Positions 5,132 to 42,501 of a stretch of 64,000 bases of DNA are shown piece after piece (position 1 is the first letter of the stretch; each line of letters opens with the position of its first letter). The position numbers and the translations under genes were made by a program. This DNA is from Wickerhamiella versatilis. Lineage: Eukaryota. The notes beneath the pieces were generated by a model that saw only the letters and a list, made by a program, of their open reading frames with translations, ran no database searches and was not told the DNA's origin. Where the stretch lies: positions 496,001 to 560,000 of the forward strand of contig JAQOWU010000007.1 of assembly GCA_030867685.1 (NCBI GenBank), in the 5' to 3' direction.

Positions 5132-6625
5132 CTAGGAGGATGGCTTATTAGTCGCGAGACATGTTGCATGGAAAAATTTATTTTCCTGCTCGACACAGTT
5201 TGTCCAAACCCACTCTTCAGCATCTTCAGACCATGCCTCGGCGAAAAGTTCGTGGCATATTCCACATGCCACATCACCGTCACTCATTATTGGAACATAT
5301 TTCTTTCGCTCAGCGTCTAAATCGATGACATTGTTTTTCACATCATCATTTTCTTGACCTTGATCTTGGGCCTCAGTAATGTCGTCTTCGCGGTATTCAA
5401 CCCATTTATCCACACTTAAGAACCAGCACCTATTACGAGAATGTCCATCCCGAAGTACTTTGTTGACACGAAAGTGCATGTCAAGCTCAGCTTGCTCCTC
5501 CTCACGGCCCTTAGCATCGTCAGGAAATCGTCGCGCACAATGAGAGCACTGTAATGGCTGCTCAGCGTATAAAAGCGAGATTACTAGGTCTGAAGCAGGA
5601 GCATTATCTATAGATTCCTGATTGAGGTCGGGTATTTCTGTTTCAACAGTCTTTTGTCTTAGCTGTCCATTTATACTTGCCGCAAGCTGCGTAAAGTCAA
5701 TCTGGGGCGTCTCTGGAGGTGAAGCGGATTGAGGCTGTGCATTATCAGATACGTCTATTCTGCTCGGTTCATCTGCTTCAGGTTCAGCATGATGCTTTTG
5801 CTGAGTTGCTTGGTGCTTCGGTTTACCCAAAGGAACATTGTTGGTCCCAGTAAGCCCGCCACTTGCCCCTCCCTTTCGATTATTCTGACCTCCTCCAGTT
5901 CGCCGCTGCTTATTACCCTTCTTGTTATTAGGAACTCTCGAGGAGTAGGCTGCACGATGCTTGATCCGTTCAATCTCTCCCAGTATTTCTGGAAATGTCT
6001 TTGGGTCGACGCTTGGACCCGAGACCCGCTCCAGTAGGCGCATCAGGGCTGCAACATTTGTGTCCTGTTCTGGGTTCGGATTTTCTCCACCAACACTGCG
6101 TATCGCCCTGTTTATTTCTACCATCATGGAAGATTGGTTCATTGGCTTTGAAGCTACGGGAGGCGGTGCAGTTACAGGCACGGTGCCTACAGGAGGCGCC
6201 GCACCAGGGACTTGCTGTAATATAAAGTTATCAATATTTCGCAGAACATCATAAGGAAAAAGAGTTGAGCCCACTGGCGGCTGAGGCATAGTCCAAGTAC
6301 GAAAAAGCTCGACAAGTCTACCCTTAGTTTGGTCGCGAACCATACCGAATGTTGCAATAAAAAGACTAGCGACCCGTGGCGCAAATAGGCGTACATATGG
6401 CTCAGGCTGTCTCTTACACACTGAATCGAGCAGATATAGACATGGAAGTCGAAGCGGCGGTGGACATGTTCGTGCATGCTGGTCAATGGCATCAACAATA
6501 GCAGGAGCAAATCCTACATACTCGCTGGCAATATCCGTGAGACTGGATATAATAGGTCTCGATGCAGTCGTTAGCTCCTGTAAAGATTCCAAGTAATCCT
6601 CACGGACTTCAGTGGCTTCATCCAT
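5132..6625 (-). CDS. PCF11: mRNA 3'-end cleavage factor Pcf11
   Basis: N-terminal CID domain (LQELT..SRPIISSLT, LYLLDSVCK); C-terminal zinc fingers (QCSHCARRF..LDMHFRVN, CGICHE.F...EEWVW..C..FHATC). Confidence 0.9.
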   Translation of the reverse strand: MDEATEVREDYLESLQELTTASRPIISSLTDIASEYVGFAPAIVDAIDQHARTCPPPLRLPCLYLLDSVCKRQPEPYVRLFAPRVASLFIATFGMVRDQTKGRLVELFRTWTMPQPPVGSTLFPYDVLRNIDNFILQQVPGAAPPVGTVPVTAPPPVASKPMNQSSMMVEINRAIRSVGGENPNPEQDTNVAALMRLLERVSGPSVDPKTFPEILGEIERIKHRAAYSSRVPNNKKGNKQRRTGGGQNNRKGGASGGLTGTNNVPLGKPKHQATQQKHHAEPEADEPSRIDVSDNAQPQSASPPETPQIDFTQLAASINGQLRQKTVETEIPDLNQESIDNAPASDLVISLLYAEQPLQCSHCARRFPDDAKGREEEQAELDMHFRVNKVLRDGHSRNRCWFLSVDKWVEYREDDITEAQDQGQENDDVKNNVIDLDAERKKYVPIMSDGDVACGICHELFAEAWSEDAEEWVWTNCVEQENKFFHATCLATNKPSS

Positions 6626-7016
6626 ATAAGTATGGCTAGTCTGCTCACTAGTATGTCAGCAAGAGGAGTACTTTGCCCACACCCATAATTTAACCACTGG
6701 ACTTGTGCAAATGCTTCCAAAGTTTAGATGGACTTTTTTTTTGTCTTGAATCATTAAGGGTACGTACCGATACTGATAGGCAGCATAGATTTCTCAAAAA
6801 AAAAGGAAGAATATACTACTTTTTTCACAATTTGCATGTAAAAAAACAGCATTTGGCACTACCCAGAAATACCAGAACCTTCTCATAATCAATTTATTAG
6901 GCTATTATATTTACATTAAAGCTTGCTCTTTATTATTTACTCTAGTAGTTTCTTCCAACTTTCGTGACCTTTCACATAACTTTTGCTTATAAATATTTTT
7001 TCACTATCAAGAAAAA

Positions 7017-15914: not shown

Positions 15915-16281
15915 TGCAGAGCTTCTCTAAAATTTCACTCCACGACTTAGGTAATTTAAATTTCTCTGGGATGGGTCCGTAACTGGACTGGTTGGATCTT
16001 GCTCAGAGATTGAATGGTTCTGATATCGCCTGACAATATGTAAAACTTAGAATTATTGAAGTGATATTACAACGATCATGGCGGTCTGCTAATTGACGCC
16101 GACCCACAACTTTGACCACGTAAAAAGCTACGCTTAAGAGATTCAAAGAGGACTCTAAGATTTTCGCCTAACATACTACTTTGCTCATTTTGAGCTCCCT
16201 GCATTTGTGTAGCACCCATGTTTAATTAAAGAAATAAATATTACCTATGATGTAGCATCAACATAGCGCTTACTAACGCCC

Positions 16282-19200
16282 ATGGATCCTGGACTTTCGA
16301 GTCAGATCCGCGCGGCCTTGGATATTGAGCATTCAGCTTTAAGTTCGCAGGCGGACAGACGTGAGGCAGAGTCGTTCCTGCTACAGCTTAAGCAACGTGA
16401 TGATGCTGCATTGATTGGTTTTGCACTGGCCGCACCTCACCCTGAAGACGCGACCCTTCCAGGTAGCGCTGGACCCAGAAGACACTTTGGTTTTCAAACA
16501 CTCTTATATGCTATACAGTATCAGGCTAGCAGTTATGATTCAGAGCAGCGTCTGGCTATTCGTCGATGGATTCTTGAGCTTGCCGAGAGTCTAACCTCCT
16601 CTGACCCGCCCTACCTTAGAGAAAAGGCAGCTGTTGTCTGGTCTGAATGGGCCAAACGTACCTGGGGCGTCCTTACAGAAGAAGCTGATGGCTGGGCGTC
16701 TATGGATTCAGAACTGCTTGCGCTATGGCAATCAGGGGACGCTGGACGTGATTTCACTCTTAGTGTTTTTCGCACATTATTCGAGGACGTGTTCGTGCTT
16801 GAGGACTCAGTAGCAATCCAGCGGAGTATGCATCTTACCGCTCAAATTACGGAGGTTGTCTGCTCTGGCAAGGACATTCAGGAATCATATGATGCTAGGG
16901 CTCCTGAGCTAGAACAGCTTAGGGCAGATCCTGAACAAGGGTGGCTCCAGAGATGGTGCATCAGTTGCCAAGACCAAAATATTCATCATTTATTACGCTA
17001 CAGACTGTTAGAGACAGTTAAATGCACTTTACAATGGGTTCTCGCGTCTGCACTCATTAACACAGATATTGTGAAGTTATTCAGCTCTGCATTGTCTGAG
17101 GAGGACGTTCAGACACGGATAGTTGCAGTGGATGCTTTGCAAATTATATTCATGAGGCGATACAGTAATCCAGCTGAGTTTGAAATTCTTGTTGCCCCCG
17201 TGTTCGAAACAACAGGTATTGAGTGGCTGTATCAAATATATCACGCAGCGGCGCAGGCCACCGCGGCTGATATTGATAATGATGAGGAGTACTCCTTTTG
17301 TAAAAAGTTATCCGAGCTTTTGTGTGCATTAGGGGATTGCTACATCGGGACTGTTGTAATTGACCCACCCCCCAAATTTGGACTTCGTCGAAACAGCGTT
17401 GACTTATATGGATTCTTGTCTCTAATGGTAGATATTGCTGAGCATCCCAGTCTTGTTGTTGCAGGAATGAGTCTTCAATTCTGGTGTTCTCTACTTCGTA
17501 ATGAAAAACTTGCTAGCCAACCAGAAGTTGAGAGAATACTAGGAAGATTGCTTTCAGTTGGGAGTGAGAGGTGTGTCAATCACAGTGACTTTCCTGATGA
17601 TCACCCTACGTCTCTGTATATGGCTCAAGACTTCGATACTTCTGATGCAAGTAGCTTCTACGGCTCCTTCCGACGCTACATGGAGGACACTATCCGGCTT
17701 ATAGTGTGTAGAATCCCAGAAGCTTCGATCAGATGGCTTCATGAGCGTATGATGACATTTTTTCAAAGTGAGCTTGGCTGGCGTGCAGTGCATGAGGAGG
17801 TTAGTCTGGAAAATCATTCAGACCCAGCTTTTGTCCTCGGATGCGCCCAGATTGGCACGGTGGAAGCTGCTATTCGGGGAGTCGTCAGGTGGCAAATATG
17901 GGCTCAAGATACAGAACGCGATATGCAGCAAGCACAGATACTTGCTCTTGTGGCCGAATGGGCTCGCGAGCTGGTCACTTTAATCCCAACTGACCATCTG
18001 CTTCATCATAAGGTGATTGAGTGTCTGGTACAATTTGCACCACTTGTAAAGGATGATAATGATCTTTTGTTTTCCATTTTACAAAGAGTATTTCAGGCCA
18101 CCGTCACGCCTGGTGATCCGGCAAAAGAAAAGGAATTCGAGCGTGTTCGAGACTTGCGGACTTCTGCAGGGACAGAGCTGAACAGACTTGCATATATGGT
18201 TCCGGAAAGTCTTGCTGGTATATACGATAGGCTGGAAGCAGTTGTTAGTGATCTTCTTGCAAATGGCCAAGTACAAGAACATGAAAGTGTGAGCTTCAAG
18301 AGTTTTTTGCTAGTCGTAAGCCAACGAAGTGAGCTCCCGAATAAAGAGGCACACTTCTCTGCAATTGTTGATCCCGTGCTGCAACGTTGGAATGACCCTA
18401 CAACGATTCGTGGTCTAAATGACCTAGAATGGTTCATGGAGAACGTTGGTATCGTTCGAATAGAACAATATTTCCAACGACGTGGAATAACCGAGGCAAC
18501 TAATCTGCAGCAGACACCTATGGATGACGAGGGGCGAGCCCTTAAGCTTGAGTTGAAACAGAAGTGGCAGGCTATATTTCCGGTTCGACCTTCAAGGATA
18601 TTTGTTCAATATACGATAGAGCGTCTAAACCACAACTCGCCGGAATTCCAGCATCTGCTCTCATTGTGGTCGCCCCGAATCAAGCAAATACTTCCTTGTA
18701 TACTCCAGCTACTATCACAGATAATGGCATTCCATAACCCATCCCAGTGGACTAATCTTCCCCCACGTGTCCAAACGTTTGTGCGGCAGTCGACACGAGA
18801 ACGATTCTGGCAGGTTGGCATCTCCATGCAAACACGAGATGAATTTGAGAATGAAAGCATGGCTGCTTCTAAGACTTTGCGAGATTTCGCTGATTCCGTT
18901 GGCCATATTATTAGATACACAAGGGAATACACATTCCTAACACTCGGCTCAATTTCGCAATTAGAGGGTACGATGTATGAAATTGATGGCATGGGAATCA
19001 AACTCTATGAAGCGCTTGCAGGTTCCAATACGGAGGGAATAACGTCTCACTGTTGGAGACATATGATATCATTAGTGGTGCGTAACGTCGTCAACAATTG
19101 TCCAATAGAATATCAAGAAAGCTTCCTCGGTGATTTCCTTCCCCCTTTCCTTTCCCGTCTTACTGCAGTCCTGCGTAACATGTGGAGTTTGCAGGAGGCT

Positions 19201-19920
19201 CGTGGCTTCCAACTCGAAGAAAAAGCCCAAGAAGATGAATTGAGTGAGGAAATGATGGACGAGTATCTTTTGAGGCAATTTACGGTCGTAGTTAATCGCT
19301 TGGTAATTGATCTTGTTGGACAAGCGAGACTTAAACCGCAACAAGCATTGCCTGATCGTCGACAAGCAATTCATGAGCTCTGCCGTCAAAATCCGCGAAT
19401 TCTTGCGAGCGTGCTAGAGTTGAGTCGTACTATAATGGGATTCAGGGATAGCAGATGTTGCTATAATATATGTTTGGTGCTGCGACATTTGCTTATCAAC
19501 GGAGTTCCGTGCGAAAGAGAGATTGAACAGTATTTTGTTGAGGAAATCATGCCCGCATGTCTCCAGACATTGGGTGATCTATTTTTCATTGAAAGTAGTG
19601 GTGAAGCAGCTTCGATACTGACACTTATATATTTGCGTATGAGTAGATGCCAGCCTTCCCCGGCTGAAGTTCTTTCCCAGCTTCTGTCTATCAGTAACGA
19701 GGATTTTGCTATTTTCGATAGGCATATGCATGCCGAAACAAACCTACGTGTTCAGCGTGCGCACATGCTTGACCTTCTCAAGAGGTGCGATAAAATGTCG
19801 GATGACAGGGCCCAAGCGCGTAAACGGGCGAATAATAATGTCCCTGTAACGCGTCGCAATGTTAACAATGAGGAGGATATTGACGCCGCAGCACTCATTT
19901 CAATGTTCGGTGATAACTAG
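16282..19920 (+). CDS. MSN5: Exportin-5-type karyopherin
   Basis: 1212-aa HEAT-like protein; MD..SQI..AL start, RHFG, LFEDVF, LRTSAGTELNRLAY, ERFWQVGIS, FADSVGHIIRYTRE. Confidence 0.92.
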   Translation: MDPGLSSQIRAALDIEHSALSSQADRREAESFLLQLKQRDDAALIGFALAAPHPEDATLPGSAGPRRHFGFQTLLYAIQYQASSYDSEQRLAIRRWILELAESLTSSDPPYLREKAAVVWSEWAKRTWGVLTEEADGWASMDSELLALWQSGDAGRDFTLSVFRTLFEDVFVLEDSVAIQRSMHLTAQITEVVCSGKDIQESYDARAPELEQLRADPEQGWLQRWCISCQDQNIHHLLRYRLLETVKCTLQWVLASALINTDIVKLFSSALSEEDVQTRIVAVDALQIIFMRRYSNPAEFEILVAPVFETTGIEWLYQIYHAAAQATAADIDNDEEYSFCKKLSELLCALGDCYIGTVVIDPPPKFGLRRNSVDLYGFLSLMVDIAEHPSLVVAGMSLQFWCSLLRNEKLASQPEVERILGRLLSVGSERCVNHSDFPDDHPTSLYMAQDFDTSDASSFYGSFRRYMEDTIRLIVCRIPEASIRWLHERMMTFFQSELGWRAVHEEVSLENHSDPAFVLGCAQIGTVEAAIRGVVRWQIWAQDTERDMQQAQILALVAEWARELVTLIPTDHLLHHKVIECLVQFAPLVKDDNDLLFSILQRVFQATVTPGDPAKEKEFERVRDLRTSAGTELNRLAYMVPESLAGIYDRLEAVVSDLLANGQVQEHESVSFKSFLLVVSQRSELPNKEAHFSAIVDPVLQRWNDPTTIRGLNDLEWFMENVGIVRIEQYFQRRGITEATNLQQTPMDDEGRALKLELKQKWQAIFPVRPSRIFVQYTIERLNHNSPEFQHLLSLWSPRIKQILPCILQLLSQIMAFHNPSQWTNLPPRVQTFVRQSTRERFWQVGISMQTRDEFENESMAASKTLRDFADSVGHIIRYTREYTFLTLGSISQLEGTMYEIDGMGIKLYEALAGSNTEGITSHCWRHMISLVVRNVVNNCPIEYQESFLGDFLPPFLSRLTAVLRNMWSLQEARGFQLEEKAQEDELSEEMMDEYLLRQFTVVVNRLVIDLVGQARLKPQQALPDRRQAIHELCRQNPRILASVLELSRTIMGFRDSRCCYNICLVLRHLLINGVPCEREIEQYFVEEIMPACLQTLGDLFFIESSGEAASILTLIYLRMSRCQPSPAEVLSQLLSISNEDFAIFDRHMHAETNLRVQRAHMLDLLKRCDKMSDDRAQARKRANNNVPVTRRNVNNEEDIDAAALISMFGDN

Positions 19921-20063
19921 GCTAGTGTATATAAGTCTTTGATAAAGGAGAAGAATATGAACTTCTTTCGAAATTATTCATTAATAATCATGTCAACGGT
20001 CCCATGCAAGATGCCAGCGACTGACCGTATCTACGTAATTTGTAAGCTTGCTTACACGTGATA

Positions 20064-21719
20064 ATGAAAGGAAGCGACTTGCTCATTGCTGCATTGGAAA
20101 ACGAGGGAGTTGAAAGAATATATGGTATTCCTGGTGAGGAAAATCTGGATGTTATCGACTCCTTGCGTACCTCCACCATAGAGCTTGTCGTTGTACGACA
20201 TGAGCAGGTTGCTGCATTTATGGCCGCGACCTATGGGCGATTGACGGGGAAGCCAGGTGTCTGTTTGAGCACATTGGGCCCAGGTGCACTCAATCTTACT
20301 ACAGGTGCTGCCTATGCGCATCTAGGGGCTATGCCAATGATTATGATAACCGGGCAGAAGGGTGTCCTATCCGAACGACAGGGAAGTTTTCAGTTTGTAG
20401 ACACGGTCAGAACCATGAGTCCCCTCACTAAAAGTGCTAGGCAAATTGTGAGCCCTTCAATGATTCCTACTGCTGTACGACAGGCATTTCGGACAGCAGT
20501 CGAAGAGCGTCCCGGACCTGTGCATCTAGAGTTGCCTGAGGATATCGCACATCAGCATACTTCATCTCCACCACCCATTGTACCTGTCCATGACCTTGAT
20601 ACACAAGGTGCTAGGACACATGCGATTCAAATTGCCGCCCACCACCTTATCGAAGCAAAACGCCCACTAGTGATGTTAGGTGCAGCAGCTTCCCGTCCCC
20701 GCCTTTCTGGCTTGCTTCATGAATTTTTCCAGAGGACAAGTCTGCCCTACTTTACAACTCAGATGGGTAAAGGCAGTGTTGGTGGTTCAACCGACCTTTA
20801 CATGGGAACAGCAGCTCTAACAGAACGGGACTACGTGCACGAAGCCATAGAGCGAGCAGATGTGATTATATGTGTTGGCCACGATACAGCTGAAAAGCCA
20901 CCATTCATCATGTACGAAGGTGGACCCTTGGTAATACACTTTGGATATTTGCCTGCTCATATTGAAGCAGTCTATTTTCCGCAAGTCGAGGTTATAGGGG
21001 ACATTGGACAATCCTTAAGCCGCCTAGCTGATATTGTTCATGGAAGAATCCGACATAACCATGCACTATTACCGCTACGCGATGGGATTCTTATGCGGAT
21101 TTTAGAACACTCCAAAGAAAATCGCTGGACCCCGCAGAGGATTGTCGCTGATGTTAGGCATGTAGTCCCACAAGACGGTATTGTAACCTTGGACAATGGT
21201 ATGTACAAGATTTGGTTCGCTCGTAACTACCGTACTAGTCTTGCGAATACCCTATTGCTGGATAATGCTCTGGCTACCATGGGTGCTGGGCTTGCTTCAG
21301 CGATGTCTGCAGCACTTCTATATCCTAATCGATATGTCTTATCCGTTTCGGGAGATGGAGGCTTCATGATGAACTGCCAGGACCTGGAAACCGCAGTGAG
21401 ACTTAAGCTAAACCTTGTATCACTCGTTCTGGTCGACAATGCATTTGGCATGATCAAGTGGAAACAAGAGGCCGATAACTTCAAAAACTTTGGACTTGAT
21501 TTTGGAAATCCTGATTTCGTCAAATTAGCTGAATCCTTTGGTGCTAAAGGACAGTATGTTTATAATGTCGAAGAATTCATTCCTGCTCTTCAAAAGGCGT
21601 TTCAAGAAGGTGGCGTGCAGCTTGTGGCTGTACCAATTGATTATTCTGATAACGTAACCGTGCTCATTGACGAGCTCAAAAAACGTTTACCCGTTCTCCC
21701 TGAAGGCGTAGAGATTTAG
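20064..21719 (+). CDS. Bacterial-type acetolactate synthase large-subunit family ThDP enzyme (candidate HGT)
   Basis: MKGSDLL..ALENEGVERIYGIPGEENLD, catalytic RHEQ, LSTLGPGALN, LDNGMYKIWFARNY, LLDNALATMGAGL, ThDP motif GDGGFMMN...DNAFGMI; no mitochondrial presequence. Confidence 0.9.
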   Translation: MKGSDLLIAALENEGVERIYGIPGEENLDVIDSLRTSTIELVVVRHEQVAAFMAATYGRLTGKPGVCLSTLGPGALNLTTGAAYAHLGAMPMIMITGQKGVLSERQGSFQFVDTVRTMSPLTKSARQIVSPSMIPTAVRQAFRTAVEERPGPVHLELPEDIAHQHTSSPPPIVPVHDLDTQGARTHAIQIAAHHLIEAKRPLVMLGAAASRPRLSGLLHEFFQRTSLPYFTTQMGKGSVGGSTDLYMGTAALTERDYVHEAIERADVIICVGHDTAEKPPFIMYEGGPLVIHFGYLPAHIEAVYFPQVEVIGDIGQSLSRLADIVHGRIRHNHALLPLRDGILMRILEHSKENRWTPQRIVADVRHVVPQDGIVTLDNGMYKIWFARNYRTSLANTLLLDNALATMGAGLASAMSAALLYPNRYVLSVSGDGGFMMNCQDLETAVRLKLNLVSLVLVDNAFGMIKWKQEADNFKNFGLDFGNPDFVKLAESFGAKGQYVYNVEEFIPALQKAFQEGGVQLVAVPIDYSDNVTVLIDELKKRLPVLPEGVEI

Positions 21720-21972
21720 ATTTCAGGCTAGCTTATAAGCCACTATATAGCACACATATAGTCGCGGAATGTACCAAAAATTTTCTGCAAAAGGCATAAA
21801 ATATGGGACAATAGTCTAAATCGCGTTGTCAGGATTTCCTTAAACATATGATAGAAAGGTTGCCACATCTTTTTTAACCGTTGGTGGAATACGATAATCA
21901 AATCCTAGATTACCAATGACTTTTCGAATTAATCTCCATAGCAGACACCTCTCTTGTCATTACCGTTGTCAC

Positions 21973-23439
21973 TTATCGAGCCCAGGGACCTGAATCTGTT
22001 GAGGGAATACTATCCGTTGTAATTTGAGCAGTGCTGGAAGTCTGTGTGGGGATGAGAGATGTACTCAGTATTGAGGGTGTTGAAGTAAGTAATGAAGTGT
22101 GCATATAAGTTTTTTCAGAAAACCAGTTCGTGAAATTAAAATTATTGGTTGAGGTGGAGCTGTATAATGGCACTGAAAAAGCAGATGGAATCCCAGTACT
22201 CATTATCTCCACTTTCGATGATGTGACATTTAGTTTGGCTTGTGCAATTGCTATTTGGTAATTTTCGAGATCGTATGTAACATAGAGAGATCGCAAAAAT
22301 ACGTCGCCGAGAATATATGTGTACGAATCTGGAGCAGGGCCCATTGCAAGAACACATTGATCCTTTCCATCCAGTTGGAAGGGGGTCACATTGTCGTCTT
22401 CAAGAAGCTGTACAAGAAGATCTTCTGTTGGCACGTCGACCGTAAAGCCTGAAAAATTGAGACGGTAGTGTGTTTGTATTGGATTTGAGCAGGGACCAAA
22501 AAAGTATCCAAGATCATCTGCGTATGAATAGTTTAAAGAATTTCCAAATGCTTCCACAATTTCTGGTGGAAAGTACGCGAAACTTGTTCCTGAGTCGAGT
22601 AACATTGCAATGTTGAAATCTGCCAAAGTTTCCCATGTTCCATTAGAATGGAGTCCAGAGAAGCCATTTAGCATCACACGAAGTTGGGTAGGTTTCTGCA
22701 AATATTCGTGATAGTAGTTATATATAGGCATGACTCCCAACTGCCCCTGGTACTTCGCATGATCTATAGCTCCGAACAGGATTTCACCGTGACCTGCATC
22801 TTTATCATTGAGCCACAAACTATATGCTTTGGTGTATATTAGTCCCTGGTCCTTCATTAAGGTAGGTACATTTCTATATAGCGGATAAACACCAGATCCG
22901 TTACGATGAATTTTTGCTGTGGCCTCGTTCGCTTCGAACCCAATTCCAAAAACACAAGTTGAGGAGTTGGCAGAGTCTGCCACCGCGAAAATTGCATCGT
23001 GAATTTTTTGGCCTCCAATTCCCATCTGATCCCGAACTAAGGTACCGTTGGCTTGTGTACGATCACCGTATTCAATTTCAAAAGGTGTTGTCAAATTTTG
23101 GAACGTTTGGGACTTTGAATGGTCAAATGTGGCACCTGTACAATTCTGAACTGTTGCGTTATGACAATAGGGATTCGACGTATCGGCAACCCACAGGTCA
23201 GATGAGCCTGTATCAAGAGTAAACCATACATTTTGCGAAGGCGTTCCCAATTCCAAGGAAACTCGATAGTAATATTGATCATTATCCAAGGTAACCAATA
23301 CATTCCCTCTTTCAGGATGTTCAAGAAACCCGTTTTCTCTCACCCCTCCACCAGGATGCCGTTCCATTGGCAATGAAATTTGTGGTGACGGTACATGAGC
23401 CGACAAAGCAAGTGTGAAAAAAAATATTTCGTGAAACAT
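21973..23439 (-). CDS. Secreted aspartic protease (yapsin/SAP-like, family A1)
   Basis: Signal peptide from ATG 23439, catalytic DTGSSDLW and LLDSGTS, ILGDVFLRSLYVTYDL, Ser/Thr-rich tail. Confidence 0.92.
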   Translation of the reverse strand: MFHEIFFFTLALSAHVPSPQISLPMERHPGGGVRENGFLEHPERGNVLVTLDNDQYYYRVSLELGTPSQNVWFTLDTGSSDLWVADTSNPYCHNATVQNCTGATFDHSKSQTFQNLTTPFEIEYGDRTQANGTLVRDQMGIGGQKIHDAIFAVADSANSSTCVFGIGFEANEATAKIHRNGSGVYPLYRNVPTLMKDQGLIYTKAYSLWLNDKDAGHGEILFGAIDHAKYQGQLGVMPIYNYYHEYLQKPTQLRVMLNGFSGLHSNGTWETLADFNIAMLLDSGTSFAYFPPEIVEAFGNSLNYSYADDLGYFFGPCSNPIQTHYRLNFSGFTVDVPTEDLLVQLLEDDNVTPFQLDGKDQCVLAMGPAPDSYTYILGDVFLRSLYVTYDLENYQIAIAQAKLNVTSSKVEIMSTGIPSAFSVPLYSSTSTNNFNFTNWFSEKTYMHTSLLTSTPSILSTSLIPTQTSSTAQITTDSIPSTDSGPWAR

Positions 23440-24209
23440 ATACGAAAATATGGCATTAAAATCAAGCAACTATATATCAGGCGAACTTTATTCCTAAAGG
23501 GTAACTACAAAAGATAAAAATATAGATCTGACCGCATTGGTTGCAACCTTCTGAACCCTATATTCGCTTATGCTCAACATTAGCGGAGACACGTGAGTAT
23601 TTTACCGTCGTACGAATAGTTATTATCTTTCTAGATTTGAATAGTTCTATACAGTTTGACTATAAAGTGCTTCCATGAGCACAACAAAACATAATCAAAA
23701 GCGATTTCAGCTAACTTTGAACATCTTTGTCAGTGCTTCCATTCCCATAACCCTCCATATAGTCAGTGAGTGATGAAGTCTAGAAACTGATACTTCAGTC
23801 AGCACGGAAAGGACAGTCACTCACTAGGTATATAAAGGATAATAATAATATTTCACTTTCACTTTCACTTCCCGCAATGCATTGGTTTTCGTGGCTCACT
23901 GAACTTGTCCTTCATCAATAAGTTTGCAAATTGCTGCTGCAGCTATGACTGCTTCATCTACGTCAGATCCCTGATGCAACTTTTCAGGGTTTGTGGCACC
24001 CATTACAGCCGTCATCAATGCAAAGACATAAAATTTCATCGATTTTGGAGCTCAATGTGCCATGTATCTCCGTCTTATAACTTTGCTCTCCTCAAGGACT
24101 TGCCCTAAAGGGAAGGAGTAGTCATGATATTATAGTAAGTTCAAAATTGTTATATCCCTAGATAAAACATCTTTCAAAATAAGAGCTGGAGCTAAAAAAC
24201 CAGTTTTAG

Positions 24210-25778
24210 CTACCAGAGATCCATTTTAATCCGACCACTCTTTTTCAGCGACTTAAATTCAGCCTCAGCTCTCTTTTCGCCAAGCTTACTCGCCATTATA
24301 TGAATAAGGGTCAATCGCGACTGTAAACGGAGTTTGCGAACATCACCACACACATAAACATAAGCACCGCGGTCCAGTAGATCCCAAACAAGGTCTGAGT
24401 GTTTTTTTAATTTGTCATGGACATAACTGGCGCTTCCCCATCTGGAAAATGCTGGTATGACAGTGGTGTCAGGCCACTTTTCATGTCGGTAAAGTTGCTC
24501 TTGAGGTGTACGACAGCCATAAAAGACATACTTATCACCTTCATGAGCTTGACAAAACGCTCTAAATGGAGCTATGCCGGTTCCGGTACAAATAAGAAGA
24601 ATAGGTACTCCGCTCGGAGGCAAGTGAAAACTTGGATTAGATCGAATAGCAATGGTAAGATAATTCCCATCAGACTTACTCAAATATTTTGTTGCAACTC
24701 CTTCTGCCATTACTGTTATACTAGGTGTAGAACAAGAAGAGATACTGTAAACACGAGGTGAGAGATAAGGGAGATTTTCTAACAGATATTCTGGCACGAC
24801 AGGCCAAGGCTGTCCATCACTGAGCGACAAAAGTAATGAACCAAGAGTTTGAGGTGCACGAGAGAATTCTCGAAAGTCACTAGCCACGCGCAGAGCACGC
24901 TCTCGAGTAATGGCATTTGGGGCAAAATGGGAAAGTTGGCTTAAGAGTTCTCGCTGCATCCTGTTTCCGATACCTATGTACTGGCGTGCCAGCTCCTCAT
25001 AACTTGCACAATGATGTCCATTGATTTCAACGTAGGTGTTTCTCTTTGATTCCAGCCCTACAGCTTTTATAAATTCAGCAACCTCATCTTCTCCATTTTC
25101 AGGCCAGACGACTAAATGATCTCCAGGTTTAAACTCCGTTCGGCACTCAGGAAAGTCTATTTCATAATATTGACGATCACTTGCTGCTATTTTGTTCACG
25201 CGTGACTTACTTTCAAATAATCTGTCATTTGCTGGATTTGCGAGATGAAGTTTTTCACCCTTAGGGCTCTCAATCTCAGTCATTCTAGTATTTGGAGTGA
25301 ACGTCCATGGTTGCTGAACAATATTGAGTCTAGAGGCAAGGCGTTGAATTACAGATTCCTTCCAAGCATACCAGTGTTCATCTTGCTCAAAAGATAGTGC
25401 ATCCTGTTCCTCTCGGTGATAAAATGGCGTCGCGCCTAATTCCAAAAGACGCTTGTCAAGCTTTCTTCCTGCAGCGTTAAACGTAGGATAAGCTGTCGAG
25501 CCTCTTGCAAATACTGAAAAGTTAAAATTCAGATTATGAGGTGAGGCCTCAAGCTTTTGCCAAAACACTGAGGCATTATCTGGGAAGCTTCCCTGTCTAT
25601 ATGTGCTGGTAATAAACAATGCATATCCTGAGAAACTATATGGATTGGAAAACTCGTTCAAATTCTTGAAACATGGATCTAACTTGAGACGCCATCGCAA
25701 TTCTCCAACTAAACGTCTCGCAAACCCCTCGCAGACCCCAGAATGGGAGCCATAGAAAACACCTACCCGAGGCAGCAT
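24210..25778 (-). CDS. Divergent soluble diflavin reductase, paralogue of NADPH-cytochrome P450 reductase
   Basis: Flavodoxin domain (FYGSHSG, PDNA), GDHLVVWPEN, PRVYSISS, GTGIAPFRAF, YGCR, AFSR, YVCGD, C-terminal DLW; no N-terminal TM anchor. Confidence 0.85.
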   Translation of the reverse strand: MLPRVGVFYGSHSGVCEGFARRLVGELRWRLKLDPCFKNLNEFSNPYSFSGYALFITSTYRQGSFPDNASVFWQKLEASPHNLNFNFSVFARGSTAYPTFNAAGRKLDKRLLELGATPFYHREEQDALSFEQDEHWYAWKESVIQRLASRLNIVQQPWTFTPNTRMTEIESPKGEKLHLANPANDRLFESKSRVNKIAASDRQYYEIDFPECRTEFKPGDHLVVWPENGEDEVAEFIKAVGLESKRNTYVEINGHHCASYEELARQYIGIGNRMQRELLSQLSHFAPNAITRERALRVASDFREFSRAPQTLGSLLLSLSDGQPWPVVPEYLLENLPYLSPRVYSISSCSTPSITVMAEGVATKYLSKSDGNYLTIAIRSNPSFHLPPSGVPILLICTGTGIAPFRAFCQAHEGDKYVFYGCRTPQEQLYRHEKWPDTTVIPAFSRWGSASYVHDKLKKHSDLVWDLLDRGAYVYVCGDVRKLRLQSRLTLIHIMASKLGEKRAEAEFKSLKKSGRIKMDLW

Positions 25779-25948
25779 TCTTAGAGCCTCTCGTGCTTTG
25801 ATACTGAATTACGTCCAGTTCCACCTGAAATATTTTTATAGTAAGAGGAGCCGCTAATCAGTTGAGTGCCTCTCTCTTACACCTTCCAGGGACGTTAACA
25901 AAGTCTGACTTATCAGCTTGCTCGAAAGCTGGGGGAGGTCTTACCCAA

Positions 25949-26960: not shown

Positions 26961-29009
26961 TTACCAAACATCTTCTTGAAGAAGTTCTCGGTTCCTCATC
27001 TTTCGCACAATTGCCTCAGCTTCCTCTTGGGTTACCCCACGCTGTTCTTTCAAAATATCTAACAGCGTTGCATGTACATCGCGTGCCATTCTAGACGCAT
27101 CGCCACAGATATAAAAGCTTGCACCTTTAGCTAATAGGGCATTTACGAGCTGAGCATTTTCGCGAAGACGATCCTGAACATATAGTTTAGCATCCTGTTC
27201 TCGGCTGAATGCAGTTATGACTTCCAAAAAGTTAGACTCAGTGAAAGGGCCATCAATTTGACCAGCCGTTGACTGGTTGGAATAATTGGCCCACTCATCT
27301 CCGTACAGATAATCAGTGTGACGCGAACGAGAACCAAAAAATAGTAGAGCTTTACCAACTTCCTTGCCATCTCTTGCCTGTTTAGCGCGCTCATGAATAA
27401 ACCCGCGGAATGGGGCTACTCCTGTTCCGGGACCGACCATTATAATAGGCTTCTTGCTCGTGATTGGCAGTTTGAAGCTTGAATGGCGCACGTGTGCCGG
27501 CACACTCAGGGAGCCTGAAGAAGCATAGGCGCCACGAGGACCTTTCAAATCATAGGATTTCTGCGTCGATGCATTCAAAATTGCCAGCATGTTATTAGTA
27601 GCAACTCCATTTAGCTGCCAATCTCCGAAGTTCAATTGTTCGACGACACCTGTGGTGGAAATTATATCTGGAGTTTCAAGTGAGCTCGACGAGATAGAGT
27701 AATACCGGGGTTGCATTCTAGGTATACCCTCAATCAAAAGTGACGCTGGAACATTCCACGGCTTACCATTGGTTAGTGAGAGAAGAAGCGCAGACAAATT
27801 CAGGCACTTGGCTGTAATGTTCTCATGGAAAGCATCCTTGTCAGAGGCAAGCTTGCTTAACGTTTCGCGTACTTCACTGGGTGCAAAGGCAACAAACGAC
27901 CCAAGCAGTTGGCGGGATACTGGGCCGTTGATCTCCAAATAATGACGAGCGATTGCATCCCAATTAGAGGGCTGAGGGATGGGCACTTCCACGGTTGGGT
28001 CTAGTGGGGTGATGGACAGTACTGTTTTTCCCTTCAGCCCAAAAGCGTGCAGAAATCTTTCAACTTCGGAAGAATCATTCTGAGGCCAAAACGCTAAATG
28101 GTCACCAGTCTTATAGCGTATTTCAGACGCGTCGTACTCCAGGTGTACGCAGTGACGCTGTGAATCCGCAAAAAGTTCCTTGGCTTTGAGAATTTTCATA
28201 TATTTGGGATTCTGGTGTGTCCAGGGTGCCGAAGCTGTACCAGCTAGGTGTGCTGGAGTATGTTCACCATGATAAACATTTTCCAAGCCTGTAACCTCCT
28301 TCACATCTAAAGATGGCTCAAAGACATACTCGCGCTCCTTAATTCCACGCTTCTCTTTCAGGTTATCGAACAGTTTCTCCTTCCATTCCATAAAGTCTTC
28401 CTCAGTTGTACCGCGACCGTCATCAGCCTCACCATACTCCCCCGCTTCAACAGCGCCAAGACTGAGAAGCTGCTTGTTCAGTGATCGTGATATACCGTTG
28501 AATATTTCATAAGTGGAATTTCCTAAGCCAAAAACAACGAAATGGAGATTCTCCAAGGTTGTACCACCATTGCTGAAGCAAGGGCTATCCGAAATGAATG
28601 ACCAAAAGTTGGCAGCATTATCTGTTGGCTCACCTTCACCATATGAAGACATTAGAAAGATCGCAACTTTGTCTTCAGGAAATTCATCTAGATTTTCATA
28701 GTCATAATCGTCAAGATCAGCTGTCATCGCAGAGATTCCTAGCTTACTTGAAAGCTCCTTTGCCAGTTTGGAAGCATAGTCTTCAGATGTACCTGTTTGA
28801 GAGCCAAAAAAGATAACGAAGTCTTTTTGCGTAGAATCAGCTACACCCACAATGTCACGAGAATCACCAACACCGCTTGAGGCGTTACCGTAACCCCCCT
28901 TGCTGCTGTACGAGTCGATGGGCTCCTCAGCAAAATAATTTTTAAAGATGAACCATGAGACAAGAGCTGCAATAGCTAATGCAACGACTGTGTCTACTAG
29001 TGTTGGCAT
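26961..29009 (-). CDS. NCP1: NADPH-cytochrome P450 reductase (membrane anchored)
   Basis: N-terminal TM, FFGSQTGT, YGEGEPTDNA, FGLGNSTYE, PRYYSISSS, GPGTGVAPFRGF, YICGDA, QEDVW. Confidence 0.97.
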   Translation of the reverse strand: MPTLVDTVVALAIAALVSWFIFKNYFAEEPIDSYSSKGGYGNASSGVGDSRDIVGVADSTQKDFVIFFGSQTGTSEDYASKLAKELSSKLGISAMTADLDDYDYENLDEFPEDKVAIFLMSSYGEGEPTDNAANFWSFISDSPCFSNGGTTLENLHFVVFGLGNSTYEIFNGISRSLNKQLLSLGAVEAGEYGEADDGRGTTEEDFMEWKEKLFDNLKEKRGIKEREYVFEPSLDVKEVTGLENVYHGEHTPAHLAGTASAPWTHQNPKYMKILKAKELFADSQRHCVHLEYDASEIRYKTGDHLAFWPQNDSSEVERFLHAFGLKGKTVLSITPLDPTVEVPIPQPSNWDAIARHYLEINGPVSRQLLGSFVAFAPSEVRETLSKLASDKDAFHENITAKCLNLSALLLSLTNGKPWNVPASLLIEGIPRMQPRYYSISSSSLETPDIISTTGVVEQLNFGDWQLNGVATNNMLAILNASTQKSYDLKGPRGAYASSGSLSVPAHVRHSSFKLPITSKKPIIMVGPGTGVAPFRGFIHERAKQARDGKEVGKALLFFGSRSRHTDYLYGDEWANYSNQSTAGQIDGPFTESNFLEVITAFSREQDAKLYVQDRLRENAQLVNALLAKGASFYICGDASRMARDVHATLLDILKEQRGVTQEEAEAIVRKMRNRELLQEDVW

Positions 29010-35358: not shown

Positions 35359-37014
35359 TTACTTACTATTGGTCGAACTGGAGCATTTGTATTCCTCTTT
35401 CTCTTTCACGCTTACCCCATCGAATTCATCCACTTGCTTGTCATCCAAGGGATACTCGATAACAAAGAAGTTTATAAAAAAGGCAAACAGCGCAAGAGCT
35501 AGATATACGACAAAAACCATCCGCAGCGAATGGACCAGTGCAGCCTGTATGTCATCTTGAAGCGGTCCAGCTTCGAGTGAGCGTACAAAGCGCACCGTCT
35601 CCATGCCATCTGATGGTATGTCATAGTCCACAGTCTTCGATTTCTGTTTCATACAAGTTGAAAATACAGAACCTCCGACTGTTACACCCATTGCTTCCCC
35701 TAGTGCTCGAATAAACGACATAATCGCCGCTGCATCAGTCCATAGATGCTTGGGGGTGGGTGCCTGTATGATAGTTCCTAAGAGGGAATACAAACAGCCC
35801 AAGCCCAGTGCAGATGGGATGAAAATCCCGAACCAATCACCAACCTGTGAGTACTCGTCCAAAAGGAGCAACAACCCCAATCCACAAGACATGCACGCCC
35901 ACCCAGCTATAGATTGCCATTTGTAACGACCTGAAAAAGTGATAAGCCAACCACAAAAGATAGCAACAGGCAAAACACCAAACGCCAGGGGTAATAAGGC
36001 AACACCAGATATGACGGGTGAATATAGCAAAACGCCTTGGAAATAAAGAGGCAGGTAATAAGGAAGGCCCTCCATGAGTATTCCTTGGATAGCGGTGTGA
36101 ACAAAGGCTATGACTGCACTTCTATTGCTGAAGACTTTAACAGCAAACATGGGGAACTCAGGGATATAATGTTCATATATCCCAGCACCAACCAGCCCCA
36201 CAAACCCAAGAACAAGAGGAATGATCGCGTTCGGGGAGCTCCAGGGGAATGCGGTGCCTCCCAGGGTAAGACCTAAAACTAGGGAAGTGCTTGAACCAAC
36301 AACAAGAAACGCGCCCATATAATCAAACTTGGCGAGTTTCTCGCGTTTGGACCCTTCCGGGGGTGGTAACTTGATAGCAAATGGTGTGGCAAGAAGAGCT
36401 ACCCCACAAATAGGCACATGGATCCAAAATATCCATCGCCACTGGCCAATGCCACTGAATCCACCTCCCACGATAGGTCCTAAACCAGCCCCTAGAGACC
36501 ACATGGCACTAATCAACGAGAAGTACTGTCCACGGTACCTGAGCGGCACGTAGTCCGCAATGAATACCTCAGGAATTACCAAGGTTCCTGCGGCCCCGAT
36601 TCCTTTCATAGTCCTTCCACCCAGCATAGCAGCCATATTCGGGGCCGCAGCACAGCAGATATTCCCTGACATGAATAGCAAGAAACTTGCAATGGTAAGT
36701 GTCTGGTATCCAAAAATATCGCCAAGTGCAGCAATTGGAAGTTGCAATACCCCGGAGGCGAGCATGTACGCGTCGCCGATGAACTGGTGCATAGTGGTGG
36801 AACCATTCAACTCAGTAGCAAGTGTAGAGAGCGCAGTTGACGTCGACGTCGAATTAACACTCTCGAGAATGGTCATAATCATAAATATTGTCATCGCAGA
36901 ATAGAATTTCCAATCTGGTCGGAAACATATTGGTGGCTCGTCAGAGTCGTCCTCTGATAGAACTTCAGCCGTTGGCTTGGATGTCATATTGGAACGCCCA
37001 CCATTTTCTTCCAT
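35359..37014 (-). CDS. MFS drug:H+ antiporter (DHA2, 14-TM type)
   Basis: About 14 hydrophobic helices; GRTMKGIGAAG, LGPIVGG, WRWIFWIHVPI, FDYMG, YYLPLYFQGV. Confidence 0.9.
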   Translation of the reverse strand: MEENGGRSNMTSKPTAEVLSEDDSDEPPICFRPDWKFYSAMTIFMIMTILESVNSTSTSTALSTLATELNGSTTMHQFIGDAYMLASGVLQLPIAALGDIFGYQTLTIASFLLFMSGNICCAAAPNMAAMLGGRTMKGIGAAGTLVIPEVFIADYVPLRYRGQYFSLISAMWSLGAGLGPIVGGGFSGIGQWRWIFWIHVPICGVALLATPFAIKLPPPEGSKREKLAKFDYMGAFLVVGSSTSLVLGLTLGGTAFPWSSPNAIIPLVLGFVGLVGAGIYEHYIPEFPMFAVKVFSNRSAVIAFVHTAIQGILMEGLPYYLPLYFQGVLLYSPVISGVALLPLAFGVLPVAIFCGWLITFSGRYKWQSIAGWACMSCGLGLLLLLDEYSQVGDWFGIFIPSALGLGCLYSLLGTIIQAPTPKHLWTDAAAIMSFIRALGEAMGVTVGGSVFSTCMKQKSKTVDYDIPSDGMETVRFVRSLEAGPLQDDIQAALVHSLRMVFVVYLALALFAFFINFFVIEYPLDDKQVDEFDGVSVKEKEEYKCSSSTNSK

Positions 37015-37473: not shown

Positions 37474-38334
37474 TTAGTGATGGTATGTGAGATATCCTTT
37501 AACATTCTTCCAGTATTCTTCGATATATTGTTGCTGTTGTGTTCGATCGGCTCCTCTTACAGCAAGATACACCCTATTGGTGATGGGCGGGTCCCACTCA
37601 CCGGGGTTGCCTGAGGCCACAACGCCACCAGCCTCTTCAAGGATGATCCAACCTGCACACACGTCCCATGCCCAACAGCCGCCTTCCCAGTAGCTATCCA
37701 AGAGCCCAGCAGCAACATGACATAAATTCAGAGCCGCGGAACCTGTGCTACGAAGACCATGCACAAAGGCGCCATCTTTGCGAGCCAACGACTCAAATGT
37801 CCGCAATTTCACCGCGAAGTTTTCGTTGTCACGATCGGATCCCCATTCAATCCCGCACAATGAGCCCTGCAAGCTCAACGGGCGAGACGCAGGTCTAAGC
37901 GGTAACCGTTCTCCGGCCAAGTATGCTCCCTTGTCCTTTACTGCCGTATAGAGTTGATCAATAAATGGGTTATAAACCACCCCCACAACAGGTTTCTTAT
38001 TTATTGCAAGTCCCAGGGAGATGCAAGCCTGGGGAAAGAAGTGCACAAAATTCGTGGTCCCATCGATAGGATCGACGATGAACGTCGGCGAATCAGTCAA
38101 TTCCGACTTCCCGGGCACAAAGGTCTCCTCTCCGACGAATTCGAAATCAGGATAGTGTGCTCTGAGTTTCTCGGAGACATGTGCCTCCACCGCTTTGTCG
38201 ACCTCAGTGACCAAGTCAACGGCATTTTTCTTATCGTCAAATTGAACATTCCCACTACGTTTCAGTATGGTCGCACCGGCCTCACGGGCTGTTTCAACCA
38301 GGAAATCCTTGACTGCCTCCAGATCGACCGCCAT
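37474..38334 (-). CDS. Inositol monophosphatase (INM1/INM2 family)
   Basis: DLVTEVD, GEE, IVDPIDGTTNFVH, RSTGSAAL, WDVCAG. Confidence 0.95.
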   Translation of the reverse strand: MAVDLEAVKDFLVETAREAGATILKRSGNVQFDDKKNAVDLVTEVDKAVEAHVSEKLRAHYPDFEFVGEETFVPGKSELTDSPTFIVDPIDGTTNFVHFFPQACISLGLAINKKPVVGVVYNPFIDQLYTAVKDKGAYLAGERLPLRPASRPLSLQGSLCGIEWGSDRDNENFAVKLRTFESLARKDGAFVHGLRSTGSAALNLCHVAAGLLDSYWEGGCWAWDVCAGWIILEEAGGVVASGNPGEWDPPITNRVYLAVRGADRTQQQQYIEEYWKNVKGYLTYHH

Positions 38335-38498
38335 AACGTGTGTTCTTAATAATGATACGACGAAATCCCTAAGGGTGTCAAAATTACAGTTACAATTTGT
38401 CTAAGAGGGTAATAAGTTATTCAATTTATACAGGTGATTCTACAGCAATAACCGTCATCTTAAACAGAAAAAGCCAAAGCCTATAGTATCATGGAATA

Positions 38499-39833: not shown

Positions 39834-40470
39834 GTAGTGCACTGACTCAGCCAAATTGAGCGACTTAGGCTTTCCCTCACCGAGACTCCTGAATTACCAT
39901 AGAAGCGATATTATATGCAGGAAATAGCTGCTAACACGCCTCACGAAGTTTAGAACACGTCAAGGTCACACTTTTAAACTGCAAGCTTACCAATTATGCA
40001 CGACGCCCACTATTCCATATAAGTCATCCCTTAAGCAGTTATTGCAGCAAAGCCGCTTCCTTTTCTATGTAGCTCGGTCAGTTAGCTCGGTTAAAATTGC
40101 TAAAAGAGCAAGCCGGTAAACTTTCTACGCGTGAACTTCCTTCGAAACGTGTCGGACAGGACCGAATGAGTCGGCCCTCACTTACTAACCCCGGGCTCCT
40201 CGGAGGCGAGCTGATTAGGTAATCAGGATGTTGGACCACCGATTCAGTCACCGTGCGTTTATACATAATAAAATTCTAGTTAAAACTACGATATCGCCGC
40301 CTATGTTCCCTCTCTTATTTTTGGATCTTCATTATGGATTACCCCAGTCGCAACAGGACCATAAGGATAAGCCTATCCATTTCCGGAGGAACCACCCCTT
40401 ACCCAAGCTCCCACGGTAACCGCAGGCGAGTGATTCAGTAATAAACGGCCTACCCGAATTTCATTTCCAT

Positions 40471-41214: not shown

Positions 41215-41744
41215 AACAACATTTGCATATCATTGCATTATTTATTCTTAACTTTTGTATATACATAAATATATCTAGGCAATATATCTAGGCCTAGTTC
41301 TAATCTATAGCTTTTTAATGCTTTTCAGTTGTTGGGTGCGGTCCGAAGTATTGGGAATGCTAATTGGATCTCATAACACTTGACTGCAGTGTGACAAGTG
41401 GGTGCCCAGGGCCAATTATCTATGAAGTAAAGTGGCAAGAATTTTTAAATTTATGCACGATAGTCAATTAAGTTGAACCCTGTTTCCTTTCCAAAAGTCA
41501 AGCAGTAGATCAAACGAAAATTCAACTTCGTGACCAATAGTATCAACAGCAACGAACTATTTCCAAGAGTACTAAATTCGCGGTTTCTATAAAACAAATT
41601 AACAAAAAACCAACGCCTATTAATGCATTAAGATTACTGTCGGACTGGTATCTGGCCTCAAATGCAACTCTCGCATAAAAGGGTATTTCTCAGCCCATAA
41701 TATTTTGCGCTGCGGCATCGACATATAGCCTAAGCCAAGGCGCA

Positions 41745-42383: not shown

Positions 42384-42501
42384 AGCATCATGGAAGCAAT
42401 GGCTTAGTCACTGAGCAGTGACATATGAAATTAGCTTCAAAGAACTGGTTCAAATTATAATATTATTTAATAAACCAGTGAGGGCTATTTGTAAATCTAT
42501 A

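Follow-up and report, generated by a model that had tools for sequence, protein, structure and literature searches.

A proteobacterial-type thiamine diphosphate-dependent enzyme gene in the chromosome of the yeast Wickerhamiella versatilis

Introduction

The clade of Wickerhamiella/Starmerella (W/S) yeasts is the best-studied eukaryotic case in which central carbon metabolism has been rebuilt with bacterial genes. Alcoholic fermentation was lost in this clade and was regained through ADH genes of bacterial origin and the recruitment of a decarboxylase, and the native pyruvate decarboxylase is reported as lost. In this work, a 64-kb stretch of a Wickerhamiella versatilis chromosome (contig JAQOWU010000007.1, positions 496,001 to 560,000 of the forward strand, hereafter the window) was analyzed, with emphasis on a single intronless gene. 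This gene encodes a thiamine diphosphate (ThDP)-dependent enzyme, its closest relatives apart from two yeast-type sequences are proteobacterial, and it is located between two resident yeast genes.

Several transfers into the W/S clade have already been described. PMC5897096 and PMC11140947 report ADH1 and SUC2 from Acetobacteraceae in the clade, as well as a bacterial PDC in W. versatilis. The gene presented here resembles these cases in the kind of recipient, in a donor related to Acetobacteraceae and in encoding an enzyme that acts in central carbon or 2-oxoacid metabolism. The published bacterial Pdc of W. versatilis differs in belonging to another gene family, which was found with Pdc1/Aro10 profiles (PMC11140947, PMC5897096). 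In neither source does the main text contain the term "acetolactate". The decarboxylases of the W/S clade in PMC13003428 were considered as possibly the same gene and were set aside; they were found with an Aro10 query or taken from the literature, and they are regarded as being of the Aro10/PDC type. A search of the literature gave no report of the transfer of this ThDP gene, which published supplementary gene lists may already include.

The gene is one more bacterial metabolic gene in a lineage known for such acquisitions, and events of this kind are already known. Being well expressed, it is a candidate for an unrecognized step where the pathways from pyruvate branch, which may affect flavor compounds in food fermentations with this yeast. 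Furthermore, the large bacterial family to which it belongs, with hundreds of members that are often plasmid-borne, is probably misannotated.

Protein family of the ThDP gene

All coordinates are positions within the window, and the gene is located on the + strand.

20064..21719, + strand: coding sequence of a ThDP-dependent enzyme of the NF006187/PRK08322 family, of proteobacterial origin (open reading frame, Pfam and NCBIfam matches, identity, trees and conserved columns)

The open reading frame (ORF) is intact and comprises 551 codons from ATG to TAG. A first-pass annotation of this DNA, made from the letters alone, had claimed an intact, intronless ThDP gene of this length, and both the exact ORF and three Pfam domains were recovered. 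In detail, TPP_enzyme_N (residues 1–113, E 1.4e-36, 125.3 bits), TPP_enzyme_M (residues 188–321, E 2.7e-23, 82.6 bits) and TPP_enzyme_C (residues 377–523, E 2.7e-36, 125.1 bits) all score above the Pfam gathering score. By this N-M-C domain order, which is that of the POX/ALS type, the protein is assigned to the ThDP superfamily. The motifs quoted in the annotation are found as well (GIPGEENL at residue 21, LDNGMY at 376 and ATMGAG at 404). RHEQ at 45–48 and GDGGF at 430–434, the latter followed by the invariant D458, are conserved in six of six aligned family members; we take RHEQ to be the catalytic glutamate motif and the GDG...N pattern to be the ThDP/Mg motif.

An in-frame TAA at 20043–20045, 21 nt before the ATG, excludes a longer N-terminus, and in the alignment the N-terminus lines up with those of the bacterial proteins. 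Since the ORF aligns with the bacterial proteins from end to end and the sole gap is a one-residue N-terminal deletion, no intron is needed.

NF006187 (PRK08322, "acetolactate synthase large subunit") is the single NCBIfam model whose cutoff is passed, all others being failed. Its score of 762.6 bits against a cutoff of 509, over residues 1–541 of the 551, is far beyond chance. The second- and third-best matches are the models of the catabolic acetolactate synthase AlsS, neither of which is reached (NF006378, 428.1 vs 510; TIGR02418, 393.8 vs 551.1). The same applies to TIGR00118 of the biosynthetic acetolactate synthases (ALS) IlvB/Ilv2 (329.2 vs 538.35). Among the best 25 of the 51 NCBIfam families matched, there is no PDC/IPDC model of the Pdc1/Aro10 type.

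Among proteins of solved structure, the closest to the yeast protein is chain 13bb_A, which was deposited under the name "acetolactate synthase" (E 8e-126), followed by AlsS of Klebsiella pneumoniae (1ozf, E 4e-100) and AlsS of Bacillus subtilis (4rjj, E 1e-88). The PRK08322 family is a biochemically uncharacterized sister group of the catabolic acetolactate synthases. The yeast protein shares with AlsS/BudB (1OZF, 4RJJ) the three-domain ThDP fold and the RHE motif of the catalytic Glu, and its GDGGF motif aligns with that of K. pneumoniae AlsS. It differs in carrying GIPGEENL where AlsS has GIPGAKID, and in remaining below both AlsS cutoffs. With the fungal mitochondrial Ilv2 only the superfamily is shared. 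The match to the structure of yeast Ilv2 (1n0h) is far weaker (E 6e-52, aligned from chain residue 87), the ALS cutoff is not reached and no presequence is possible. Given this lack of a presequence, the ThDP enzyme is likely to be cytosolic.

Bacterial origin of the gene

The protein search covered 5.8 billion proteins and scored 8000 candidates, of which the best 120 are considered here. In parallel, a search of species-representative prokaryote genomes gave 571 stretches with a relative, of which 80 loci were kept. Among the best 120 of the 8000 candidates, only two sequences, P0002 (99%) and P0003 (87%), are closer to the yeast protein than bacteria are. The remaining 118 show 68–73% identity and all organism names given are bacterial, with a metagenome-assembled genome of Gluconacetobacter at the top (73%). 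There is no fungal name among these 120; proteins of W. sorbophila are present in the database, while most genomes of the clade are unannotated. The best five of the 80 kept loci all belong to Gluconacetobacter (72–74% identity) and the other 75 show 66–71%. The Atlas neighbor clusters are 100% Bacteria. As a yardstick, Pda1 of the same window was used, whose best named match is W. sorbophila (69%), followed by Trichomonascus (67%). This result assigns the yeast to the Dipodascales, either within the W/S clade or close to it, in agreement with the clade suggested by the first-pass annotation. The identity of the ThDP protein to Gluconacetobacter (73–74%) is thus higher than that of a resident protein to the best named yeast.

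Two maximum-likelihood (ML) trees were constructed. The quick tree contained 93 rows, that is, 80 genome loci, three yeast-type sequences, two named proteins and eight distant representatives. The yeast rows group with a support of 100 and are placed in a 10-row clade (support 99) with six Gluconacetobacter rows and Carnimonas. The careful tree contained 52 rows, namely two yeast-type sequences, P0004–P0030, 21 of the 80 loci and two outgroups; the near-identical P0002 and P0272 as well as six very long-branched representatives were omitted. The pair formed by the window protein and P0003 is supported at 100/100. This pair belongs to a clade of 11 rows, also at 100/100, together with six Gluconacetobacter rows and three rows of the Carnimonas group. 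A long stem branch (0.75) leads to the yeast pair. The bacteria of the clade group together (94/85), and therefore the donor was a relative of the Gluconacetobacter/Carnimonas lineages and not a member of crown Gluconacetobacter.

In these trees the yeast pair is placed within Proteobacteria. The family counts 571 relatives in prokaryote genomes, 576 in metagenome contigs and 157 plasmid records, and since the yeast pair is nested among hundreds of bacterial members, the transfer went from bacteria to yeast. The long stem, the N-terminal deletion and a C-terminus common to P0003 and the window protein suggest that P0003 comes from a yeast too. A scan of metagenomes for yeast-type copies with flanks gave only loci of the bacterial type (66–70%).

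Chromosomal linkage and amelioration

The gene is framed by the following features:

16282..19920, + strand: left flank, resident gene of the Exportin-5 family (MSN5-type; PF19273, E 4.1e-133)
21720..21972, + strand: 253-bp spacer with the 3′ untranslated region (UTR), from the stop of the ThDP gene to the stop of the convergent protease gene (sequence and drop of RNA depth)
21973..23439, − strand: right flank, resident gene of a eukaryotic aspartyl protease, convergent with the ThDP gene (PF00026, E 1e-61)

Both flanks are those named in the first-pass annotation. The stop codon of the exportin gene occupies 19918–19920, and a spacer of 143 bp begins after it. With spacers of 143 and 253 bp, the transfer retained the ORF alone; the 253-bp spacer is too short for any remnant of a bacterial downstream gene. 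Among the 30 other large ORFs of the window that were scanned, 25 match a Pfam family and many of these families are typically eukaryotic, including Pcf11, Brix, Rrp4, eEF1-beta, ENTH, trehalose-phosphate synthase/phosphatase and urea amidolyase. Around the ThDP gene, the window is thus compact yeast chromosome.

The exact protein is encoded on six contigs, the longest of 873,793 bp. A stretch of 3.3 kb including both junctions is present in 20 sequencing runs of 11 studies, which comprise isolates of a single organism as well as food, food-fermentation and sediment metagenomes. In one isolate (run X6, record 2), a contig covers 16275–22662 with zero differences and joins the exportin gene, the ThDP gene and the 3′ part of the protease gene. 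Its depth is 211.6, compared with 212.7 and 254.7 for the flanking contigs. A metagenome contig of 103 kb (X9) spans the whole stretch and may be the window's own source. Independent assemblies therefore join the gene to both of its flanks, a link on which the first-pass annotation had made its proposal depend.

The gene also has the composition of its host. The GC content at third codon positions (GC3) is 0.406, as compared with 0.440 ± 0.060 in 31 resident ORFs and 0.84–0.87 in the Gluconacetobacter orthologues. The relative synonymous codon usage correlates with the window pool at 0.644 (rank 18 of 32), whereas the Gluconacetobacter gene of locus L003 gives −0.431. The ThDP gene is not a contamination, and its complete amelioration implies a long residence without decay.

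Transcription

Two features upstream of the coding sequence are relevant to its expression:

19929..19936, + strand: candidate TATA box TATATAAG, recognized from the sequence, with a predicted promoter role
20044..20063, + strand: short 5′ UTR with a putative transcription start at about 20044 (tagged RNA 5′ ends, run X24)

Expression was tested by mapping raw RNA reads onto the window, from one polyA-selected (X24) and one random-primed run (X21) of the same organism as the isolates. Depths are sums of both read directions, and the value for the ThDP ORF was taken over four bins inside it. In X24, the depth is about 114 for the ThDP ORF and about 43 for the exportin gene (2.6 times); in X21 the respective values are about 229 and 97 (2.4 times). 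Depth drops from 143–182 in the bin 21239–21605 to 10–18 in the bin 21606–21972. Directly before 20044, 12 reads of X24 in + orientation carry a non-genomic tag with a consensus agreement of 1.0. This tag is presumably the template-switch oligo and would mark capped 5′ ends, so that transcription would begin at about 20044, 20 nt upstream of the ATG. The motif TATATAAG lies about 110 nt upstream of this position, within the 143-bp spacer between the exportin and ThDP genes.

The same tag is found at 15943–15952 and at 25907–25915, on the 5′ sides of a Brix-domain gene (− strand) and of COQ4, respectively. These positions are likely the transcription start sites of the two genes.

The aspartic protease gene behaves differently from its neighbors. 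In both runs the summed RNA depth over 21973–23440 is about 1–4, as compared with 40–230 for the neighbors, and in the isolate run X6 the region 22677–23362 is covered only by short contigs with a depth of 6.7–7.9, against about 212 around it. Either the gene is silent or the region is too divergent between strains for the 95% filter; it looks hypervariable.

Sequence constraint

The yeast protein and PRK08322 of Gluconacetobacter and other Proteobacteria have the same length and domain order, at 73–74% identity. In 82 bacterial orthologues, 208 columns show no variation at all, and both yeast proteins keep 200 of them. Among the 317 columns conserved to at least 95%, the window protein (P0001) keeps 296 and P0003 keeps 298, the lowest bacterial rows keeping 300 and 302. 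The yeast gene differs from its bacterial relatives in its eukaryotic chromosome, its yeast-type start site and its yeast codon usage. It also differs in the loss of a partner gene for an aldehyde or an FMN-dependent dehydrogenase, and in seven substitutions of its own at invariant sites, all common to both yeast proteins (T44V, P411A, S438C, E440D, R465K, D475N/S and Y488L). Over the full length, the two yeast copies share 87% identity, and neither has a damaged frame. It is highly probable that the gene is expressed and functional, its function being a predicted one.

Similarity ranking, which puts bacteria closest after the two yeast-type sequences, phylogeny, physical linkage, amelioration, transcription and residue conservation all agree. 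Horizontal transfer of the ThDP gene from bacteria, proposed as a candidate in the first-pass annotation, is consequently very well supported and almost certain.

Gene context of the bacterial relatives

The neighbors of the bacterial genes were recorded for the 80 loci kept from the 571 prokaryote stretches. In 20 of the 80 loci, the next gene downstream on the same strand encodes an aldehyde dehydrogenase (ALDH), at a distance of 0–25 bp or with an overlap; one further locus is cut by the end of its contig. These loci belong to Rhizobium, Phyllobacterium, Rhodanobacteraceae, Legionella, Aliidongia, Roseococcus and others. In three of the five Gluconacetobacter loci, the place of the ALDH gene is taken by a gene of an FMN-dependent 2-hydroxyacid dehydrogenase. 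When all 1646 neighbor ORFs were clustered, ALDH was the sole neighbor recurring across lineages. The other neighbors in two Gluconacetobacter loci (a LysR regulator and an OYE-type flavin oxidoreductase) gave no hint of a pathway.

The two activities are also found fused. P0123 is a full-length ThDP-ALDH fusion with 54% identity over its ThDP part, and P0150 is a ThDP-ALDH fusion without the N-terminal ThDP domain (46% identity). Both partners remain below the specific NCBIfam cutoffs. The ALDH comes closest to the dehydrogenases of lactaldehyde, sulfoacetaldehyde and phosphonoacetaldehyde, and the FMN enzyme to L-lactate dehydrogenase.

Further fusions of related ThDP enzymes are P0144 and P0226, each with one of two types of extra domain, that is, a C-terminal cyclic-nucleotide-binding domain (677 aa) or an N-terminal NAD-dependent epimerase/SDR domain (907 aa).

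Of the 157 plasmid records that carry the family, 83 are predicted to be conjugative. In an annotated Rhizobium plasmid, the ThDP and ALDH genes are 1 bp apart and no other pathway genes are found around them. On the Rhizobium plasmid pRle248e (L161), the region 5889–6691 directly upstream of the ThDP-ALDH pair contains a DUF1778 gene together with a small, overlapping hypothetical gene. To our reading they resemble a toxin-antitoxin pair, and this would be in keeping with a setting that is accessory and mobile.

Five bacterial genomes carrying the gene were searched for related functions. A separate IlvB scores above its cutoff in four of the five, whereas Legionella longbeachae (L044) keeps the PRK08322 gene with the adjacent ALDH gene and has no IlvB above the cutoff. 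Acetolactate decarboxylase (AlsD, PF03306) was found in none of the five, the controls B. subtilis, L. lactis and M. acetivorans being positive, and a true AlsS was likewise found in none. No AAL_decarboxy domain is present among the 34 ORFs of at least 180 aa that were scanned in the window.

Predicted function

Pyruvate decarboxylases carry a catalytic Asp in the motif G.PGD.NL, at the position that matches the Glu-Glu of the present family. These residues (E25-E26, in GIPGEENL) are invariant in the family and replace the Ala-Lys of K. pneumoniae AlsS.

A similar arrangement of genes is known from the mandelate module MdlB-MdlC-MdlD, which consists of an FMN 2-hydroxyacid dehydrogenase, a ThDP benzoylformate decarboxylase and an aldehyde dehydrogenase. 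The bacterial relatives of the yeast gene are alike in that an FMN dehydrogenase gene adjoins in 3 of the 80 loci and an ALDH gene adjoins in 20 of the 80, or is fused. They differ in that none of the 80 loci has both partners and in that the ThDP enzyme is of another subfamily. An annotated ALS with benzoylformate decarboxylase activity is AlsS2 of Acetobacter pasteurianus (PMC8148554). It was considered as a member of the family and rejected, being only 22–32% identical to true ALSs (PMC8148554).

The pairing and fusion with ALDH, the neighboring FMN dehydrogenase, the absence of AlsD and AlsS from the carrier genomes and the Glu-Glu motif favor, to a modest degree, a 2-oxoacid decarboxylase that releases an aldehyde over an AlsS-type carboligase. 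The first-pass annotation had left the choice between carboligase and decarboxylase open, and this caution stands. The acetolactate/acetoin route that it put forward is the less likely part, given the failed AlsS models, the AlsD count of zero in five and the recurrent ALDH partner.

According to this scenario, a single ORF was acquired from a proteobacterium related to Gluconacetobacter (Acetobacteraceae) and the Carnimonas group. In an ancestor of this Dipodascales (Wickerhamiella/Starmerella-like) yeast, it was integrated between the gene for exportin-5 and that for the aspartic protease. There it would have been provided with a promoter of the yeast type and a short 5′ UTR, while its base composition and codon usage became fully adapted to the host. 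It is transcribed into polyadenylated mRNA and maintained by strong purifying selection. The enzyme would act in the cytosol, binding ThDP/Mg, and would decarboxylate pyruvate or another small 2-oxoacid closely resembling it, with release of the aldehyde. In bacteria, a dedicated aldehyde dehydrogenase would oxidize this aldehyde, a step that in the yeast may be replaced by resident aldehyde or alcohol dehydrogenases. Taken as a whole, a domesticated transfer that is expressed and acts as a decarboxylase is on balance the more probable explanation.

Several points weigh against this explanation. With respect to function, 57 of the 80 bacterial loci have neither an ALDH nor an FMN dehydrogenase gene within 600 bp. 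As neither partner passes a specific NCBIfam cutoff, no substrate is assigned. The yeast took the ThDP gene alone, without either partner. The nearest characterized relatives are carboligases (AlsS, E 1e-100; 13bb_A, E 8e-126), the NCBIfam name of the family is that of an acetolactate synthase, and a literature search for an assayed or characterized member of the PRK08322 family found none. With respect to expression, RNA depth is similar in both read directions, the strand being given by the tagged 5′ ends. Moreover, the RNA runs come from a strain 1–5% divergent from the window, most reads being 95–99% like it. As for the origin, P0003 is attributed to a yeast from its sequence only, and the trees were built without fungal ThDP sequences, so the missing fungal clade is a matter of similarity rankings and not of a topology test.

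Alternative explanations

The main rival accepts the bacterial transfer and takes the enzyme for a true acetolactate synthase of the catabolic type or for another carboligase. It would join two pyruvates, or pyruvate and an aldehyde, and feed a cytosolic overflow to acetolactate, diacetyl or acetoin. Because the closest characterized and solved relatives (13bb_A, 1ozf and 4rjj) are of this kind, the rival keeps substantial weight, and it is the less probable reading but a serious one. The rank of the AlsS models in NCBIfam and the 57 loci without a dehydrogenase neighbor fit it well. So does the L-lactate-dehydrogenase-like FMN enzyme beside the Gluconacetobacter gene, the conversion of lactate to acetoin being reported for acetic acid bacteria (PMC8148554). 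It has to account, however, for the missing of both AlsS cutoffs, for the exchange of the Ala-Lys of AlsS for an invariant Glu-Glu, and for carrier genomes without an acetolactate decarboxylase, which the expected controls do contain. Catabolic AlsS acts together with AlsD, mostly from a common operon, whereas the PRK08322 carriers lack AlsD in all five cases and have the gene paired with ALDH. Furthermore, if the product is acetolactate, it makes no sense for the gene to be fused to that of an aldehyde dehydrogenase or translationally coupled to it. The opposite extension, in which the PRK08322 family is misnamed altogether, is speculative and rather improbable in its full form. The family would be the ThDP half of a compact module, independent of CoA, of 2-oxoacid decarboxylase and aldehyde dehydrogenase that circulates on alphaproteobacterial megaplasmids. 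The decarboxylase half would have been captured from an Acetobacteraceae-like donor by a yeast without a native pyruvate decarboxylase. It would now serve as a cytosolic decarboxylase of pyruvate (or hydroxypyruvate/2-oxobutyrate) feeding alcohol and aldehyde dehydrogenases, some of them bacterial in origin.

The other rivals question the role or the origin of the gene. An expressed passenger, decaying or neutral and with no current enzymatic role, could explain the seven substitutions at invariant columns in both yeast sequences and the long stem branch (0.75). Against this stand an intact ORF, in which 200 of the 208 invariant columns are kept along with 296 of the 317 nearly invariant ones, near the lowest bacterial rows (300 and 302), and a second yeast copy that is 87% identical over its full length with an undamaged frame. 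A transcript depth above that of the housekeeping neighbor and an amelioration that was completed without decay also speak against it, and a passenger is very unlikely. Vertical inheritance from an old fungal ThDP family, or a transfer from fungi to bacteria, gains some room from trees that comprised no fungal homologues and from the remark of the first-pass annotation that filamentous fungi may have ALS-like paralogues. It is contradicted by the nesting of the gene in a family of 571 prokaryote-genome, 576 metagenome and 157 plasmid relatives. The identity to Gluconacetobacter (73–74%) also exceeds that of Pda1 to any named yeast (69%). The widespread fungal clade that the annotation had kept in reserve does not appear among the nearest relatives (best 120 of 8000, in a database with annotated fungal proteomes; Atlas clusters), and this explanation is highly improbable. 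Finally, bacterial contamination or a chimeric assembly might be suspected, several of the datasets with the junctions being food-fermentation metagenomes in which acetic acid bacteria are possible. Yet composition and codon usage are yeast-like, the closest bacteria show about 73% identity and not about 100%, and an isolate contig bridges both junctions at single-copy depth. Moreover, the stretch with the junctions recurs in eleven studies and yeast polyA RNA covers the gene, so that this rival is effectively refuted.

Other features of the window

A second ORF of 551 aa (35359..37014, − strand) was considered as a ThDP paralogue and rejected, as it is an MFS transporter by Pfam. A Peptidase_M55 match in the Pfam scan was disregarded, its 19.5 bits being below the cutoff of 25.

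Five consecutive ORFs at 37474–43269, including eEF1-beta, show a higher GC3 (0.51–0.64) and the lowest codon-usage correlations (0.20–0.34). This is probably due to expression-linked codon bias or to a regional shift of composition.

Two genes similar to cytochrome P450 reductases are located 1.2 kb apart on the − strand, at 24210–25778 (522 aa) and at 26961–29009 (682 aa), with COQ4 between them. Both contain flavodoxin, FAD-binding and NAD-binding domains. At 25868, a short way upstream of the COQ4 ORF, an insertion of 3 bp (CCT) is present in 12 of 19 and 33 of 69 RNA reads of the two runs, which is a difference between strains or alleles.

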